From IMG/VR virus record IMGVR_UViG_3300037506_000165, positions 1 to 35,608 of that record: DNA of 35,608 nucleotides. One strand, given 5' to 3'. Source of the DNA: a virus. Taxonomy: Duplodnaviria > Caudoviricetes. Made by a program: the position numbers and the translations under genes. Every line of letters starts with the position of its first letter. Positions within the stretch are counted from its first letter, which is position 1. Below the pieces are notes generated by a model, which made no database searches, had not been told where the DNA came from, and worked only from the letters and a program-made list of their open reading frames with translations. Below, piece by piece: positions 13,289-35,608 of this stretch.

Positions 13289-14413
13289 ATGACCACAGCA
13301 GCACCAAAAGAGCGCCCGCGCATCTTGCGCATGAACAAGATACCAACCAAGCCCATCCACTTTCTATGGAAACCATGGATTCCTCTCGGCAAGATAACAG
13401 TCGTAGACGGCGACCCCGACCTAGGCAAGTCAACCATGCTGCTCGACATTGCAGCCAGGCTCAGCACGAACGGGCTAATGCCGGACGGATTCCAGGGGCC
13501 AACGGGAGCAACTGTACTTCTGTCAGCTGAAGATGGAGCCCATGACACCATAAAGCCGAGGCTCATGACGGCAGGAGCCGACCTAGCCAAGATCGTCGCC
13601 ATCACCGAAGTACATGGCGACCACTACACTCGACCCATCCGCCTGCCGGCCGACCTTAAGATCGTCCTCAAAGCCATCATGGCAACACAAGCCAAGCTGC
13701 TAATCATAGACCCGCTCATGGCATACCTTGACGGCGTAGACGCCGTGAAGGACCAAGAAGTACGATACGCCTTGCACCTCTTCAGTAAGCTAGCTGAACG
13801 TACTGGCGCAGCCATCATCTTGCTGCGGCACCTGAACAAGGCCAGCGGAACCAAAGCCATCTATCGCGGCGGTGGAAGCATTGGCATCATCGGGGCGGCC
13901 CGATCTGGCATCCTAGTAGCCAAAAGCCCAGACAACCCAGAACAACGCATCCTGGCGTGCTCTAAGAACAACTTGGCCAAAACACCCCCCTCCCTGACAT
14001 TCGAACTGGTACCAACGCCAGACGGACCATGTCGCGTCTTTTGGGCAGGCCAAACCGCCATCACGGCCAATGAACTGCTGTGCGCAGAAAACGACCACGA
14101 AGATAAACCTGCCATAGACGAAGCCGCCGAATTCCTCACGCAACTGCTGGCTCAAGGCCCAATGTCGTCCAAGGCGATTTACTCCCAGGCCAAGAGCGCA
14201 GGGATCGCCGAAAAGACTCTGCACCGCGCCAAGAAGAAGCTGGGAGTCAAAGCCCTCAAAGACACACAACCAAACGGGGCATGGGTCTGGCAGTTGCAAC
14301 CAGAAGATGGCCAAGCCCCCCTGCCATGCGGACCTTGGCCACCTTCGCCAATAAAAGGATCAGACGGAACCGCAACTCCCTGCGAACCAACACCTTCGGA
14401 ATACGCAGCGTAG
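13289..14413 (+). CDS. AAA_25 RepA-like replicative helicase
   Basis: GDPDLGKS, LSAEDG, LIIDPL, LRHLNK, GSIGIIGAAR, KNNLA. Confidence 0.88.
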   Translation: MTTAAPKERPRILRMNKIPTKPIHFLWKPWIPLGKITVVDGDPDLGKSTMLLDIAARLSTNGLMPDGFQGPTGATVLLSAEDGAHDTIKPRLMTAGADLAKIVAITEVHGDHYTRPIRLPADLKIVLKAIMATQAKLLIIDPLMAYLDGVDAVKDQEVRYALHLFSKLAERTGAAIILLRHLNKASGTKAIYRGGGSIGIIGAARSGILVAKSPDNPEQRILACSKNNLAKTPPSLTFELVPTPDGPCRVFWAGQTAITANELLCAENDHEDKPAIDEAAEFLTQLLAQGPMSSKAIYSQAKSAGIAEKTLHRAKKKLGVKALKDTQPNGAWVWQLQPEDGQAPLPCGPWPPSPIKGSDGTATPCEPTPSEYAA

Positions 14414-14620
14414 CTGGTCATACTTGGCCACCTTCAATGACCAGCTTCGAAGCACACGGCGAAGGTGGCCAGCGAAGCTGGTCAAGCCTGACCAGCTTCG
14501 CTGCATACCGCAAAACTATACCACACTTCAACTTGCAACTGTAGCGACTCCAAAATCGCCGAAGATAGCCAAGAACACCGTGCAAGAGACGCGCGGCCAC
14601 CTTCGTGCACAGGAGCACCA

Positions 14621-29573: not shown

Positions 29574-29575
29574 CC

Positions 29576-29734
29576 ATGCGGCATTCCAAAGGCAAACGAG
29601 TAGGCTACATCAGACCAACCAAGAGCGCCGGCTTCAAGAAGCGCACGAAGCGGCGCGTGCCAAGCTACACTGACAGCCAGGACCCGCCTCCAAGCAGCAA
29701 TCCAAGCTTACCCCTGAAGCTTAGTGGACGATAG
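29576..29734 (+). CDS. small basic peptide
   Basis: GGAG RBS; MRHSKGKRVGYIRPTKSAGFKKRTKRR. Confidence 0.35.
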   Translation: MRHSKGKRVGYIRPTKSAGFKKRTKRRVPSYTDSQDPPPSSNPSLPLKLSGR

Positions 29735-30039
29735 CGTAGAATCCAACACACGTCGTCGATCAGCTTTGCAAGGCACCAATTCGCGTGACAGGGCCTACTA
29801 TCTATAGGTACCTCGATAGGAACAGTTTCTGAACACCTTTCCTTTGTTCGGGAATTTGCGATATGGTATATAGTCCATCTCACTGTGCGATGGATCGTGT
29901 TGCAGTCGGATGATGCGCTCACCTTCCGCCATTCACGGCGATATGTGCGGTGATCGGCACGGCGGTTGTGCCGGTTAATGCGCCACCGGTCGGCCGTGTT
30001 ATCGCCCCAGTAAGGCGTCAGGCTGGCCCGCCAAGGCAC
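29665..30039 (-). CDS. possible minus-strand hypothetical protein
   Basis: open frame from a GTG; local strand composition appears reversed relative to + genes; no motif. Confidence 0.25.
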   Translation of the reverse strand: MPWRASLTPYWGDNTADRWRINRHNRRADHRTYRREWRKVSASSDCNTIHRTVRWTIYHIANSRTKERCSETVPIEVPIDSRPCHANWCLAKLIDDVCWILRYRPLSFRGKLGLLLGGGSWLSV

Positions 30040-30120
30040 GATCTCGCCCAAGGGTGACCAACGAGGCCATAATGCGGTTGTGCGGTCCTTGGCGCTGGCT
30101 TGGCGCAGTTGTGCGGCTAT

Positions 30121-30650
30121 TGGCGCTCGGCCCCCCTGTCGGGGGGGGTAAAGAAAAAGAAACCACCACAACCCGACAGCAGCGTGTGGGGTTCTGGCGC
30201 TCAGCCCCAAACCTGCGGTTTGGGGAAAAGAAAGGCCCACGACCGACTGGCCTGCGCTGCGCTGCGGCCGGCCTGGACACACATGTGCGGTGTCTAGCGC
30301 TCGGCCCCCAACCTGCGGTTGGGGGAAAGAGAAACCACAACACCCATCATCCATCCAGCGCATGCGCGGTGCGTAGCGCTGTGGCGCAAATGGGCTGCTA
30401 TTGGCGCTCGGACCCACACCTGCGGTGTGGGGAAGAAGAAAAACCAACGCCCGACTGGCCTGCGCTGCGCTGCGGCCGGCCCGTGCTGCGGTTGTGCGGT
30501 TCTAGCGCCTCAGGCCCGCCCCTCGCCTCCGCCCTGAAGGGCGGAGGACTCGCGGGCGGGTTGCTGCCCTGTCCTAGCGCTCAGTCAGTGCGCCGCGCCC
30601 CGAATTACCGGCCCCTCGCCTCCGCCCTGGCGGGCGGAGGGCTCGGGGCC
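30121..30650. repeat. array of T(A/G)GCGCTC(A/G)G + hairpin + A-rich tract units
   Basis: motif at 30121, 30195, 30295, 30402, 30503 (variant), 30575; 31-nt exact repeat at 30243 and 30451. Confidence 0.85.
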
Positions 30651-31087
30651 GGCGCATCCATGCCCAGCTTGACAGTGCACCCCCTCGCTGCGGGCGTCCA
30701 TGCCCTGCGCTCGGGGGATATAGGCCCGTCCCTGACAATACACCCCGGCGCACGTGTACGGCAACTGACGCGCTGATACCCCCCTTCGGGGGGCTACTTG
30801 CGGTCCCCTCGTGATACTGCAATGACCCTGTCTTTTGAAACGTCACACGCCCCGCTCGCCCCGCCCCTCCGCCCTAGCCCCCAGACGCCCTTACTGCCTG
30901 GCACTAACGCTTAGAACGTCGCGCCCTGGGCGATTGGGGGCGGGCTGCGGGGACGGGGCTTCGCGGGCGGCGGCCGAGGCCGTGAAGGACCAAGGCGCAT
31001 GATTGCGTGGCTACTAAATGGTGGCGCAAAATTGCGAAATGTGAAAATGGCAAATGGGGCAATGGGCGACTGGGGGCGACAGGAGGG

Positions 31088-31558
31088 CTAGGCGTCACAG
31101 GGGCGTGCACCCCGCCGCGACGGAAGAGCGCCCAAAAGTCCGCGAAGGCAGCAGGCACCCACTCGCGCCAAGCCCCGAGCCGAGTGAGCCAGCCGGCATC
31201 GAAAGGCCGAGCACGGGCAAGCGGACCTCAAACGCGCCAGGACGGCAGGTCAGGACGGAGCGGACGAGCGACAGGCCCCCAGAAGAAGCTCACCATGCCA
31301 CAGCGCCAGGCCGAGACGCAGCCAGCACGCACCTCAGGCCGGAGTCCGAGCACAGATCAGCACGGGCTTACACGAGGCAGCCCAGAACAGGTACGCGCAC
31401 TCGCCAGCCTCACGAGCGAACATCGGCACACCCCTGGCGCAACCGGCACAGACACGCCGGCAGCCCCATACCCAGGAGCCGGCAGGCACGCGCGAGCCAG
31501 CGGAGCGAATGGGGACCGAGGCAGGACACACGAGCCGACCAGCGACGACAGGAGCCAT
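31088..31558 (-). pseudogene. frameshifted mirror copy of the SLOG-like gene
   Basis: same GGAGGTGTGTTATG start and GACGCCTAG end as 31992-32444; the ATG frame stops at 31334. Confidence 0.75.
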
Positions 31559-31611
31559 AACACACCTCCACAAGAAAACACAGGCCCAAAACACACACGC
31601 CCCCACGCACC

Positions 31612-31617
31612 ATTATA
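31612..31617 (-). promoter_or_regulatory. TATAAT -10 box present only in the degenerate arm
   Basis: + strand ATTATA; matching position of the intact arm (31938-31943) reads TGTGCG; no good -35. Confidence 0.5.
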
Positions 31618-31991
31618 CCGGCCCGCAATGGTGCTTCCGGATTTCGCGGCTCCAATAGCACATGTAAGCCCGGCCCCAGCAGCGGCATGAGCGGTCGTGG
31701 CCCAGCCCCTCGACGCCGGCCCAGCCCAAGCCACTAGCGCTCAGTCGGGCCTGGGCGGGGATGAGAAAAAATAACAAAAATAAAACCCCGCCCAGGCCCT
31801 TTGTCACCAACGCTGCGGGGCTGGGCCGGCGTCGGGGCTGGGCAACAACAGAATCCCATGGGCGCTCATGCCGCTGCTGGGGCCGGGCTTACAGGGTCCA
31901 GTGGCCGCGAAATCCGTGCTCCACCATTGCGGGCCGGTGTGCGTGGGTCGTGGCGTGTGTGTTTTGGGCCTGTTTTCTTGGGAGGTGTGTT

Positions 31992-32444
31992 ATGGCTCTC
32001 GTCGCTGTGGTCGGCTCGCGTGCCCTGCCTCGGTCCTTCGCTCCGGCTGTCTCGCGGGCCTGCCGGCTCCTGGATGGGGCTGGCCGTCGTGTCTGTACCG
32101 GTTGCGCCAAGGGTGCCGATGCGTTCGCTCGTGAGGCCGGCGTGCGCGTGGACCTGTTCTCGGCTGCCTCGCGTAAGCCCGCTGATCTCCGTGCTCGGAC
32201 TGCCGGCCTGGTGCGTGCGGTGGCTGCGTCCGGGCCTGGCGCTGGCGTGGTGTGCTTCTTCTGGGGGCCTCGCTCGCCTGGCTCCGTCCTGACCTGCCGC
32301 CTGGCGCTTGAGGCCGGCTTGCCCGTGCTCGGCTTCGATGCGAACGGCTGGCTCCCTCGGCTCGGCGATGGCGAGTGGGTGCCCGCTGCCTCCGCTGGCT
32401 TCTGGTCGCTCTTCCGTCGCTGGGTGCCCGCCCCTGACGCCTAG
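31992..32444 (+). CDS. adenine-minimised SLOG/DprA-like Rossmann-fold protein
   Basis: GGAGG RBS; VAVVGSR, TGCAKGAD, LRART, SPGS...A...GLPV match SLOG motifs and the gene at 34375. Confidence 0.8.
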   Translation: MALVAVVGSRALPRSFAPAVSRACRLLDGAGRRVCTGCAKGADAFAREAGVRVDLFSAASRKPADLRARTAGLVRAVAASGPGAGVVCFFWGPRSPGSVLTCRLALEAGLPVLGFDANGWLPRLGDGEWVPAASAGFWSLFRRWVPAPDA

Positions 32445-32517
32445 CCCTCCTGTCGCCCATTCGCCCATCGCCCATTCGCCCTTTTCACTATTTCACACTC
32501 TTGCACAGGAGCTTGTT

Positions 32518-32769
32518 ATGAAACTCGTGGCGCACTGCAAGAAAGAGCGATATGACGTGTATATTGGACACCCCAGCATTTGGGGCAACCCGTTTATTAT
32601 TGGCAGGGACGGCACAAGAGAAGAGGTAATCGCGAAATATAGGGCATGGATCATGCAGCAGCCAGAACTATTGAAGCGAGTCAAAGAGCTGAAAGGCAAG
32701 GTGCTGGGATGTTGGTGCGCGCCACAGGCGTGCCATGGAGATGTATTAGTGGAGTTAGCGAATGAATGA
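32518..32769 (+). CDS. DUF4326 domain protein
   Basis: CAGGAG RBS; DVYIG.PSIWGNPF...REEVIAKY...LKGKVLGCWCAPQACHGDVL. Confidence 0.9.
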   Translation: MKLVAHCKKERYDVYIGHPSIWGNPFIIGRDGTREEVIAKYRAWIMQQPELLKRVKELKGKVLGCWCAPQACHGDVLVELANE

Positions 32770-32772
32770 TAA

Positions 32773-32840
32773 GCGCAATTTCGGCCCAAATCAATGAGGG
32801 CCGAAATTGCTTAGGTTTTGAATGAAAGGAGTGAAAGATG
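32773..32840 (+). repeat. hairpin + RBS cassette leader, copy 1
   Basis: GCAATTTCGGCCC-N10-GGGCCGAAATTGC-TTAGGTTTT..ATGAAAGGAGTGAA..ATG. Confidence 0.85.
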
Positions 32841-33197
32841 AACGTATTTGTGTTTGGATCGAACACTGAAGGTAGGCATGGCAAAGGTGCAGCGCTTGAA
32901 GCAAGAATGAAACACGGAGCCATCTACGGCCAAGCAGAAGGACGACAAGGCGATAGCTACGCAATCCCCACAAAGGAGCTGCGCAGCTGGATGCCGCCCG
33001 TTACACTGCAAGACATCGATCGCGCCGTTCAGAAGTTCCTCCTCTATGCTAAACAACACCCAAGCACCGAATTCATCCTAACGCCCATAGGCTGCGGCCT
33101 TGCAGGATTCAAGCCCGAACAAATTGCTCCAATGTTTCACGATGCCCCACCCAACGTCAAGCTGCCCAATGAATTCCTGAAGATACTCAGTAAGTAG
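32838..33197 (+). CDS. macro-domain-like phage protein (A1S_2505-like)
   Basis: VFVFGSNTEGRHGKGAA...SYAIPTK...TPIGCGLAG. Confidence 0.85.
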   Translation: MNVFVFGSNTEGRHGKGAALEARMKHGAIYGQAEGRQGDSYAIPTKELRSWMPPVTLQDIDRAVQKFLLYAKQHPSTEFILTPIGCGLAGFKPEQIAPMFHDAPPNVKLPNEFLKILSK

Positions 33198-33198
33198 G

Positions 33199-33266
33199 GC
33201 GCGATTTCGGCCCAGAAAAATGAGGGCCGAAATCGCTTAGGTTTTAAATGAAAGGAGTGAACAATG
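33199..33266 (+). repeat. hairpin + RBS cassette leader, copy 2
   Basis: GCGATTTCGGCCC-N10-GGGCCGAAATCGC-TTAGGTTTT..ATGAAAGGAGTGAA..ATG. Confidence 0.85.
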
Positions 33267-33446
33267 AACAAGTTTAGAACGTCTAGAACAGCCTTGATGG
33301 AAGTAAATGAAGAAACGTGGAACAGACTGATGAATAGAAACAGCGGGCTAGGAGAGCCAGCACACGCTCTAGTGTGGCAAGACGAAGAATTTGACTATCG
33401 CGACAAAGAGTTGCCGCGATTTGACAACAAGAGGAGTGCACGATGA
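33264..33446 (+). CDS. small hypothetical protein
   Basis: AAAGGAG RBS from the repeated leader; ATGA overlap. Confidence 0.55.
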   Translation: MNKFRTSRTALMEVNEETWNRLMNRNSGLGEPAHALVWQDEEFDYRDKELPRFDNKRSAR

Positions 33447-33688
33447 ATCCAACTGTGAAGCCGATCAGCATTCAGCTAATCCCAGGACTGCAAGTCATCC
33501 CGTGGACAGGCGTCGCGTGGGCTGGACCGCTGCAACTGGTCCAAGACCTGGGACAAAACTACTGGCTCGTCCAATACTGCTCCACTGGACGCAAAGCCAA
33601 GCTGCGCATACAACCAGGATCACTCATAGCTACCACACAAGGCTACAGGCCCTGGATGTGGCACGCAATTGCCATCCACGGCGCTTGA
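33443..33688 (+). CDS. hypothetical protein
   Basis: GAGGAG RBS. Confidence 0.55.
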   Translation: MNPTVKPISIQLIPGLQVIPWTGVAWAGPLQLVQDLGQNYWLVQYCSTGRKAKLRIQPGSLIATTQGYRPWMWHAIAIHGA

Positions 33689-33764
33689 ATAGATGCTTTT
33701 GAATGTGAACAATCGATGCAGAAAGTGTATGCATCGAGTCATCTTTTCCAGAAGGGAGTGTACC

Positions 33765-34307
33765 ATGTCTGCTGAACCATTCACCGCGCAAGACGAAGCC
33801 GAAGCTGCCCCGCTGTACCCAACGGGCACCTACAAGGCCGTCGTCCTGGAACACGGCTTCTCGCGAGCCGACAGAGGTAACGGCACGCCGCAGCTTTACA
33901 TCATCGTGCAGCTGCAAAGCAAGGTCATCAATGGCGACACTCAGCCCGTGGACGCCGTCAACAAAACCATCTACAAGCCCATCACCAAGCAAACCGCCAC
34001 TTACCTACTCAGCGACCTCAACCGCCTCTTTGCTTTCCCACACCGCCAGTTCGGCCCACTCTTGACCTTCGAGCTAGCAGGCAAGCCGCTCACCGTCTAC
34101 TGCAAACACACGGACCGCATGCGCCGAGACCAAAATGGCGAATACACCATCGTCGTCGGCAAGCGCGAAGAATGGAACTGGTCCATCCCTGGCCCAGTCT
34201 CAATAGCCGCGCACGAAGTCCAGGCGCTAGACGCTGAGCTTGGCCTGGCCCCAGCCGAGCCCAAGAAGCCGACTAAGCGCGCCAAAGCAATGGCTGCTGA
34301 CTTGTAG
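33765..34307 (+). CDS. second SSB-like (DUF669-like) protein, paralog of 9815-10309
   Basis: YPTGTYKAVV, TIYKPITKQT, DLNRLF, REEWNW align with the first copy; GGGAG RBS. Confidence 0.7.
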   Translation: MSAEPFTAQDEAEAAPLYPTGTYKAVVLEHGFSRADRGNGTPQLYIIVQLQSKVINGDTQPVDAVNKTIYKPITKQTATYLLSDLNRLFAFPHRQFGPLLTFELAGKPLTVYCKHTDRMRRDQNGEYTIVVGKREEWNWSIPGPVSIAAHEVQALDAELGLAPAEPKKPTKRAKAMAADL

Positions 34308-34320
34308 TCCTTTCTGATCT

Positions 34321-34355
34321 GCGGCGCGTCGCTGTTTCCGGCAGCGACGCACCGC
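34321..34355 (+). terminator. stem-loop
   Basis: GCGGcGCGTCGCTG...CAGCGACGCaCCGC. Confidence 0.45.
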
Positions 34356-34374
34356 AACAATGGAGGTGTGTGTA

Positions 34375-35358
34375 ATGAAAACAACAGTGCTATTCACCGA
34401 GCAAAGTGCCCACATATTCACCTGTCGCACCTGCCTCAAGCGCCGCAAAAAGGCACAACGGCGCAAGACGCAGTATCCTATCAAGCCAACCAAGCTCGCC
34501 GTTGTCGGCTCCAGGGCCTACCCGAACTTGGAACTTGTCGAGGAGTTTATCGCTTCTCTGCCGCCCCACATTGACACCATCGTATCGGGCGGGGCCGCAG
34601 GAGTAGACACTACCGCTGAGATCGCCGCCAGGGCTCGCGGATTGAACGTCATCACCATTCGCCCAAACTGGAAAGCATTCGGACGGTACGCCGGCTTCGC
34701 ACGCAACGCGCTAATCGTCAAAGAAGCCCACAAGGTCATCGCATTCTGGGACACCGAAAGCAAAGGCACGCTCCACACGATCCACCTCGCACAAAAGGTC
34801 AACAAGCTACACCGCGTCATCGGGCCCGACGGCGAGACTGTCACCGAAATACCCAAAGAAGCCCTTTCAGAACAAGAAAAACAACAGGTCAGCCGCATAA
34901 CCCACGCCAGTCTGGCAAAAATGACCATGCTCTTCGGCGAATTCCAAGGACTGCCTTTTGACCAGGTGCCGCTTACCTACCTGGACTGGCTGTGCAACCA
35001 AGAATGGTTCACCGGCAAAGCTCGCATCTACACCGAAATGTACCTCTCGCATCCCACCATCCAGCGCGAGTTGGAGCAAGAACGCATCGAAGCTGCACAA
35101 AACAAGGGCTGGGTCAAACACCGCTTCGGGTTCCACTACGTATCAAACTGGACCGAGATAGCCGAAGATGAGGGCTGGCAAGCCTTCACAAGTCAACCAC
35201 CGCCAGCCAGGCAGACAAACCCACACCCAGACCCAGACTGGAAAGAACTGCGATACCTCAACCCGGCCGAACGCGACGCTTCAAGGCAAGCAGTAACCGT
35301 CTACCTGGCACTGATCGCCAAGCAAGACGTCCAAAACCACGTGGGCGCCTACATCTGA
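34375..35358 (+). CDS. SLOG family (YspA/DUF2493-like) protein with DUF3820-like domain
   Basis: LAVVGSR, IVSGGAAGVD, RNALIV, AFWDTESKGT; later MLFGEFQG...VPLTYLDWL. Confidence 0.85.
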   Translation: MKTTVLFTEQSAHIFTCRTCLKRRKKAQRRKTQYPIKPTKLAVVGSRAYPNLELVEEFIASLPPHIDTIVSGGAAGVDTTAEIAARARGLNVITIRPNWKAFGRYAGFARNALIVKEAHKVIAFWDTESKGTLHTIHLAQKVNKLHRVIGPDGETVTEIPKEALSEQEKQQVSRITHASLAKMTMLFGEFQGLPFDQVPLTYLDWLCNQEWFTGKARIYTEMYLSHPTIQRELEQERIEAAQNKGWVKHRFGFHYVSNWTEIAEDEGWQAFTSQPPPARQTNPHPDPDWKELRYLNPAERDASRQAVTVYLALIAKQDVQNHVGAYI

Positions 35359-35373
35359 CACACCCCCTGGAAA

Positions 35374-35408
35374 GGGCGGCTGGCAAGCCTTGTGCTTGTC
35401 AGCCGCCC
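35374..35408 (+). terminator. stem-loop
   Basis: GGGCGGCTGGCAAGC...GCTTGTCAGCCGCCC. Confidence 0.45.
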
Positions 35409-35422
35409 AATAGGATGCAATT

Positions 35423-35608
35423 ATGAAAAACCTACTCGTCGCTACCGCAGCAGCCACACTTTACCTCATCGCCTACGCGATCCTCATGCCGCACTACTGC
35501 TACGACCAGCGCACCGCTGTCCTCACAGCCAGCATCATAGCCCTCTTGGCCTACCTGGCCCTCAATAGTGGCCCTCGTTCGCGATTCTTTCAACCAACAA
35601 AAAGGAGT
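35423..35608 (+). CDS. small two-TM membrane protein, runs off the window end
   Basis: MKNLLVATAAATLYLIAYAILM...TAVLTASIIALLAYLAL. Confidence 0.5.
   Translation, partial: MKNLLVATAAATLYLIAYAILMPHYCYDQRTAVLTASIIALLAYLALNSGPRSRFFQPTKRS

Follow-up and report, generated by a model that had tools for sequence, protein, structure and literature searches.

The DNA analyzed here is the whole of IMG/VR record IMGVR_UViG_3300037506_000165, a virus record (Caudoviricetes) of 35,608 nt that is called the window below. The element in question is a fold-back of 1.48 kb in which an intact gene for a SLOG-fold protein is mirrored, together with its leader, by a degenerate copy of itself. We lean slightly, at a little better than even chance, toward the explanation that the element is a Frpo-like split promoter whose stem has been extended over a whole gene, and that it acts as a switch activated by single-stranded DNA. 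The initial annotation of the window had proposed that the fold-back is expressed solely from single-stranded DNA. The fold, the strand that suits it, and the -10 box agree with that proposal, while the -35 region, the search for mirrors around homologs, and the supposed link between the fold and a thymine-poor template do not.

Anatomy of the fold-back and its promoter

The left arm (31026-31760, 735 nt) and the right arm (31786-32504, 719 nt) form an imperfect inverted repeat and align over 777 columns with 631 matches, 46 mismatches, and 100 gap columns. The repeat scores 1,219 bits, and the next best in the whole record scores 66. A SLOG gene and leader mirrored by a bulged, frameshifted copy around a 14-bp GC stem with an A-rich loop had been described in the initial annotation, and the arms contain exactly this, although the limits given then (31036..32494) fall about 10 nt short at each end. 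At the tip, 31747-31760 pairs with 31786-31799 around a 25-nt loop that is A-rich on the plus strand and T-rich on the minus strand. On the plus strand, the intact arm consists of a 206-nt leader (31786-31991) with the ribosome-binding site GGAGG (31981-31985) and a 4-nt template-side bulge (31948-31951), the gene itself (31992-32444, 150 aa), and a mirrored trailer of 60 nt (32445-32504). The mirror arm (31026-31760, minus strand) is a non-coding copy of leader, gene, and trailer with stops in all three frames. Compared with the intact arm, 29 stretches are extra and 16 are missing in it, and 22 of these 45 have a length of 2 nt; when folded, it is predicted to serve as the non-template partner. 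The pairing falls a few bases short of the next gene's ribosome-binding site, where the adenine content is back to ~30%, and none was found outward past 31026 and 32504.

The 35.6-kb record contains a single TATAAT, at 31612-31617 of the minus strand and 54 nt ahead of the ATG of the mirror, and the intact arm has TGTGCG at the corresponding place (31938-31943). The earlier claim that this box lies solely in the degenerate arm is therefore correct. In the predicted fold, a 6-nt bulge takes up five of its six bases, which agrees with the idea that the -10 is pre-melted when the minus strand folds. On the plus strand, no TAnnnT was found from 29870 to 31995, about 2.1 kb upstream, and thus the intact gene has no nearby sigma-70 -10 on its own strand, as had been supposed. 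From sigma-70 spacing, transcription is predicted to start near 31944-31945.

The repeat is also present in short reads, which answers the concern, raised with the first description, that raw reads might reveal an assembly or fold-back artefact. Logan short-read unitigs span the two arms and the loop without a single differing letter or gap, and errors of the assembler and of long reads are thereby excluded; they come from one freshwater run that is possibly the source sample itself, not an independent isolate. The unitigs break at the sole 31-nt perfect match between the arms. Unitig depth drops by half at the fold tip, from 13.8 for the unitig that contains the left arm (30452-31692) to ~7 over the loop and right arm (31664-33899), and is 3 at the record end. 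At 80% likeness, the unitigs revealed no variant strain in which arm co-variation could be followed. That the fold-back is an artefact of assembly or sequencing might be argued from the uneven depth of the arms and from its presence in one contig and possibly one sample. Such an origin is nevertheless extremely improbable, because both arms recur letter for letter in the unitigs, and because chimeras and fold-back reads yield copies that are exact or randomly erroneous, whereas the present copy is 81% alike and its bulges are ordered.

The differences between the arms are patterned. Among the 20 transitions, G.T pairs arise on the minus strand in 18 cases and on the plus strand in 2 (p=4e-4), G-containing mismatches number 34 and 10, respectively, and the predicted DNA fold is more stable for the minus strand (-810.6 versus -770.1 kcal/mol). 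The minus strand is thus the one fitted to the fold, in line with the initial annotation. In the gene part, 29 indel events stand beside 26 substitutions, the mirror shows a net gain, and the substitutions are distributed 10/9/7 over the codon positions with no third-position excess. Dead copies of bacterial genes, in contrast, accumulate many more substitutions than indels and become shorter. The interruptions are more evenly spread than a random distribution would give: the longest perfect stem within the gene is 19 bp, as against 32 expected (P=0.004), and the longest overall, 31 bp, lies in the leader. Evenness of indel spacing taken alone was discarded as a sign of selection, since its P of 0.035 rises to 0.46 once a minimum spacing is allowed, and the longest-stem and paired-bulge tests were used in its place. 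In the latter, nine of the 10 template-side bulges lie 7-9 bp past a mirror-side bulge in the direction of transcription, and the reverse order accounts for one of 10. None of 20,000 permutations reached this order even when any 3-bp window was allowed, and two other scoring schemes gave 8/9. The predicted fold accordingly contains nine modules (31999-32345), each made of a mirror bulge of 2-3 nt, 7-9 bp, and a template bulge of 1-3 nt, and the promoter region repeats the module as a 6-nt mirror bulge, 9 bp, and a 4-nt template bulge. With its strand bias, capped stems, and patterned bulges, the fold does not look like neutral decay. Avoidance of restriction sites was rejected: 15 of 26 four-base palindromes are still paired, compared with 58% of all 4-mers. 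An integron attC site is a short bottom-strand hairpin with extrahelical bases on one arm, whereas here the bulges alternate between both arms over 1.48 kb.

The mirrored gene itself is unusual in composition. It contains 21 adenines in 453 nt, none of them at the 151 third codon positions, while 15 other open reading frames (ORFs) of the record have 23-34% adenine. Its product matches Pfam DNA_processg_A (PF02481) weakly (21 bits against a cut-off of 29.6, over 50 residues) and the DprA-like PHROG 768 with an E of 1e-4. The AlphaFold model, with a predicted local distance difference test score of 94, has a SLOG/Rossmann core fold and superposes on DprA (PDB 3maj, 4ljk, 3uqz) with a Z of 13.1 and a root-mean-square deviation of 2.7 over 131 residues; other SLOG proteins (TM1055, Moco carrier) tie with DprA within 1 Z unit. 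DprA binds single-stranded DNA and loads RecA. The modeled product is a SLOG protein closest to DprA, with putative DNA binding. It shares the SLOG/Rossmann core with DprA and differs from it in being 150 aa long, that is, the core alone, in staying below the Pfam cut-off, and in being encoded by an almost adenine-free gene. Viral SLOG domains have also been proposed to act on ADP-ribose signals (PMC9503650).

Relatives of the SLOG gene

A DNA pattern run against three collections matched at least 175 loci, of which 165 belong to the family after 10 non-family loci were dropped, and these reduce to 117 on dereplication. The median adenine content over the 117 dereplicated family loci among the matches listed is 2.5%. 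Relatives from a profile search number 149, and in no case does the identity over the matched part exceed ~57%. Close relatives were not found: a word-indexed protein search returned the protein itself only, viral contigs and cultured phages yielded none, there was no DNA match to phages, and a second pattern scan gave 0. Relatives of the capsid gene are on fragments without the SLOG gene. The thymine-poor template, which had been taken for a trait of the fold, is not one, being common to mirror-less relatives of the gene family.

What some of the relatives do carry is the same architecture in a short form, which the initial annotation had suggested looking for around homologs. Of 65 dereplicated relatives among the matches listed, 22 have a hairpin of at least 100 nt in the 1.2 kb upstream, with spans of 150-390 nt, and control regions gave 0/71 downstream and 1/49 far upstream. 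The hairpins were compared as a set of 25, comprising 21 of the 22 (L179 was dropped for low complexity) and four added by hand (L052, L074, L099, L101). The template strand folds better in 24 of the 25 and in all 11 sequence families. A -35/-10 pair was found on the template strand of the upstream arm in 17 of 25 hairpins, and the other three readings gave 6, 3, and 2. In several cases the boxes are broken in the gene-side arm, as with TATAAT in L101 and TATCAT in L052, L099, and L174. In L074, a 370-nt hairpin runs ~40 codons into the gene and so forms a partial mirror. The designs therefore range from promoter hairpins of 150-250 nt, through a partial mirror, to the whole-gene mirror of the window. 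About a third of the relatives with enough flank stand behind template-strand hairpins, and the thymine-poor strand is thus probably the one read while single. The median adenine content is 4.3% in relatives with a hairpin and 1.4% in those without (p=0.02). For several of the loci poorest in adenine, ordinary -35/-10 matches stand immediately upstream on the gene's own strand.

The neighbors of 21 family loci include genes for Gp157 (5/21), a PolB-like exonuclease (3), Rad52, AAA_24, SSB, ParA, and UvrD. Relaxase or secretion genes near relatives were found neither in 142 of the 181 ORFs of these 21 loci nor in 87 of the 112 ORFs of seven longer regions, and four plasmids with the gene are typed as non-mobilizable. 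Of two plasmids read whole, that of Methylocaldum has a hairpin beside the adenine-poor island and that of Nitrosococcus does not. L200 (NC_007483.1, 2832-4129) and L201 (NZ_OX458334.1, 7576-8816) are complete plasmids of cultured bacteria with no annotated relaxase, in which an adenine-poor SLOG module lies upstream of Gp157 and small genes; they offer a culturable test case. In L201 the SLOG gene lacks an annotation and is preceded by a 230-nt hairpin. A Chloroflexi bin (L159) contains a 380-nt hairpin with many bulges of 1-3 nt, 337 nt upstream of the motif; a partial SLOG match and a gene of the Rad52 family lie downstream of this hairpin. In L077, and more weakly in L186, an island ~2100-2550 nt downstream of the motif is thymine-free on the gene strand and adenine-free on the opposite one; it is not a mirror of the gene.

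Proposed switch and competing explanations

In the proposed switch, the minus strand, once unpaired, would snap back, and the mirror would become the non-template strand with its -10 already flipped out. Host RNA polymerase would start near 31944 and copy the intact arm inside a duplex able to displace the RNA. In double-stranded DNA, the gene would be off for want of a -10 of its own, and any RNA reading through from the left would include the mirror and thereby hide the ribosome-binding site, providing a second off-state. Short stems, of up to 19 bp in the gene, might keep the repeat stable. The RNA:DNA hybrid in bacterial polymerase measures 8-9 bp, and for this reason the bulge spacing suggests slack ahead of the extra template bases; the paired bulges would supply non-template slack just before each such base, within one transcription bubble. 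The least certain part of the model is the source of the single strand. Our guess favors resection by a 5'-to-3' exonuclease that starts at a break or genome end to the left and would leave precisely the minus strand, but entry of the DNA as one strand (by transfer in trans or by transformation) and replication intermediates would also fit. The product would be a DprA-like protein made while the DNA is under attack.

A broader and distinctly more doubtful idea, offered tentatively, is that whole-gene snap-back folds serve phages with double-stranded DNA as sensors of damage. A strand surviving nuclease stripping would fold, and the pre-melted promoter and bubble-sized bulge pairs would yield a protective protein solely from attacked DNA. 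This would also explain the adenine-poor SLOG genes, including those on plasmids without a known relaxase, as genes built for single-stranded templates. The single-strand promoters demonstrated so far belong to conjugative plasmids, whose DNA enters as one strand. If the idea is true, phages that package DNA into heads meet and exploit a single-stranded state undescribed for them. The fold permits a direct test on a 1.5-kb template and gives a handle on the unexplained adenine-poor SLOG genes.

Several observations weigh against the single-strand switch. No -35 was found at 15-19 bp from TATAAT (best 2/6), while the hairpins of relatives often have one. The homologs, around which the mirror arm had been sought, lack it: none of the 84 family loci with at least 1 kb of upstream sequence has a whole-gene mirror (best score 38 versus 506 here), although these relatives are distant, and one further locus has a partial mirror. 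Fourteen loci related through the neighboring ABC/GNAT gene have neither a whole-gene mirror nor a SLOG gene. The hairpin controls are mostly coding DNA and the test region is partly intergenic, and the promoter asymmetry is weak when counted by sequence family (6/11 versus 4, 2, and 2). The strand bias of the fold is confined to the gene part, with the leader alone showing no preference (-230.0 versus -229.1), and C>T and A>G changes on one strand would also fit deamination of an exposed strand or avoidance of adenine. RNA parameters favor the same strand (-1328.5 for minus versus -1267.7 for plus), so that folding as DNA and as RNA are not distinguished. No relaxase family was found in 44 ORFs and two whole-record searches of what is a 34%-complete linear fragment. 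Because the record is such a fragment, a genome end and a single-stranded stage for the phage remain hypothetical. As to the -35, the TTGCGG at 31927 is used as one in relatives, but here it lies just 5 bp before TATAAT and was not counted. A pre-melted -10 may do without a -35, which departs from the Frpo model.

The lack of a second whole-gene mirror among the 84 family loci would also be expected if the element were a decaying inverted duplication without function, its TATAAT and bulge pattern being side effects of slippage and strand-biased mutation. Many of the 2-nt indels do lie in dinucleotide runs, and deamination typically yields C>T and A>G. We nonetheless find decay quite unlikely: indels exceed substitutions and the copy has gained sequence, opposite bulges are spaced by 7-9 bp in a fixed order, stem length is capped, the copy stops at the next gene, and relatives carry split hairpins at the same place.

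Two functional alternatives dispense with a switch read from single-stranded DNA. The fold might act as RNA, either as a minus-strand transcript forming a long G.U-rich rod or as plus-strand read-through in which the mirror is a built-in silencing antisense. The rod is very stable under RNA parameters, with the minus strand preferred, both the ribosome-binding site and the start codon find partners in the mirror, and a promoter-like site matching 9/12 positions lies on the minus strand at 32794-32766. Such sites, however, occur at chance level (2 found, 1.6 expected), no Rfam match was obtained at E 0.1, the plus-strand fold is the disfavored one, and neither the lone bulged TATAAT nor the Frpo-like hairpins of relatives would be explained; an RNA role is therefore rather unlikely. 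Alternatively, the fold might mainly protect DNA or prime its synthesis, a resected 3' tail snapping back to evade single-strand nucleases and to prime re-synthesis at the stem foot, with transcription as a secondary matter. Frpo reportedly primes DNA synthesis, going by a title of Masai and Arai from 1997. The polarity fits, as on the minus strand the template is followed on its 3' side by the mirror. Just before the region, 1.45 kb of non-coding repeats trail the small terminase gene, and relatives lie upstream of single-strand annealing and repair genes. Yet protection requires neither an exact match to the limits of one gene nor a -10 box, and the genome end on which it depends is hypothetical in a linear, 34%-complete record, so this role too strikes us as rather unlikely.

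Setting in the record and known single-strand promoters

The record encodes a terminase, a portal, an HK97-type capsid protein, a head-tail adaptor, and an integrase, and it is classed as linear with a completeness estimate of 34%. The closest clusters of the integrase are mostly from Planctomycetota, and judged from this sequence the phage host is likely a member of that phylum. The fold-back comes after the non-coding repeats that follow the gene for the small terminase, and it heads a series of small genes on the plus strand. The repeat region (29574-31025, 1.45 kb) has no recognized gene and contains several repeat families with a GCGCTC core, a short hairpin, and an A-run; it is a possible packaging or origin region. 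The GCGCTC core also occurs near the fold tip, at ~31735. Downstream, the unmirrored small genes at 32518-35608 (plus strand) match DUF4326, phrog_2072, a second SLOG of the YAcAr/DprA type, and others in library searches, and they possibly belong to the same early operon as the mirrored gene. Among them, two 71-nt units (32773-32843 and 33199-33269) are 89% alike, each being a 13-bp hairpin followed by a ribosome-binding site; the left arm of the first has TTGATT-17-TATCAT on the minus strand and resembles a miniature split promoter. More GC hairpins precede the genes at 33765, 34375, and 35423. A 106-nt cluster of overlapping inverted and direct repeats directly after the AAA_25 gene (14391-14507) is a possible origin. 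The record ends (1-14 and 35599-35608) share a 4-nt overlap, and joining them places a ribosome-binding site ahead of the ATG of the first ORF.

Transcription from single-stranded DNA in vivo has been reported for stem-loops of the Frpo type (PMC9849209, PMC12672017). The known single-strand promoters fall into class 1, with Frpo1/Frpo2 of plasmid F and ssi1-3 of ColIb-P9/pESBL, and classes 2 and 3 (PMC9849209, PMC12672017, 10.1101/2023.02.15.528439). They are intergenic stem-loops of conjugative plasmids, mined in 300-nt windows in PMC12672017. Further literature was consulted for comparison (PMC13478746, 10.64898/2026.01.09.698686). A whole-gene mirror or a phage single-strand promoter like this one was not found in the open-access literature, judged from listings and abstracts, and supplements could hold longer hairpins. 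The adenine-poor SLOG family was likewise not found in print. At the DNA level, blastn of 31540-32010 against 72,556 plasmids (E 0.01) gave no match, and so no similarity to class 1 Frpo/ssi elements.

Frpo/ssi elements are intergenic and have both a -35 and a -10, whereas here a stem of ~730 bp encloses coding sequence and lacks a -35 at normal spacing. They are found on conjugative plasmids, unlike the present element, which lies in a record that encodes capsid, portal, and terminase and in which no relaxase was found. In common with them, the fold-back has a template-strand stem-loop that is predicted to restore a sigma-70 promoter unavailable to the gene in double-stranded DNA. Its -10 comes from the opposite arm and is absent here from the gene's own strand, and it heads a run of small genes of the early or establishment type. 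Thus, although the element fails three features of Frpo, namely the -35, sequence likeness, and a coding-free stem, it would by analogy work in the manner of Frpo.
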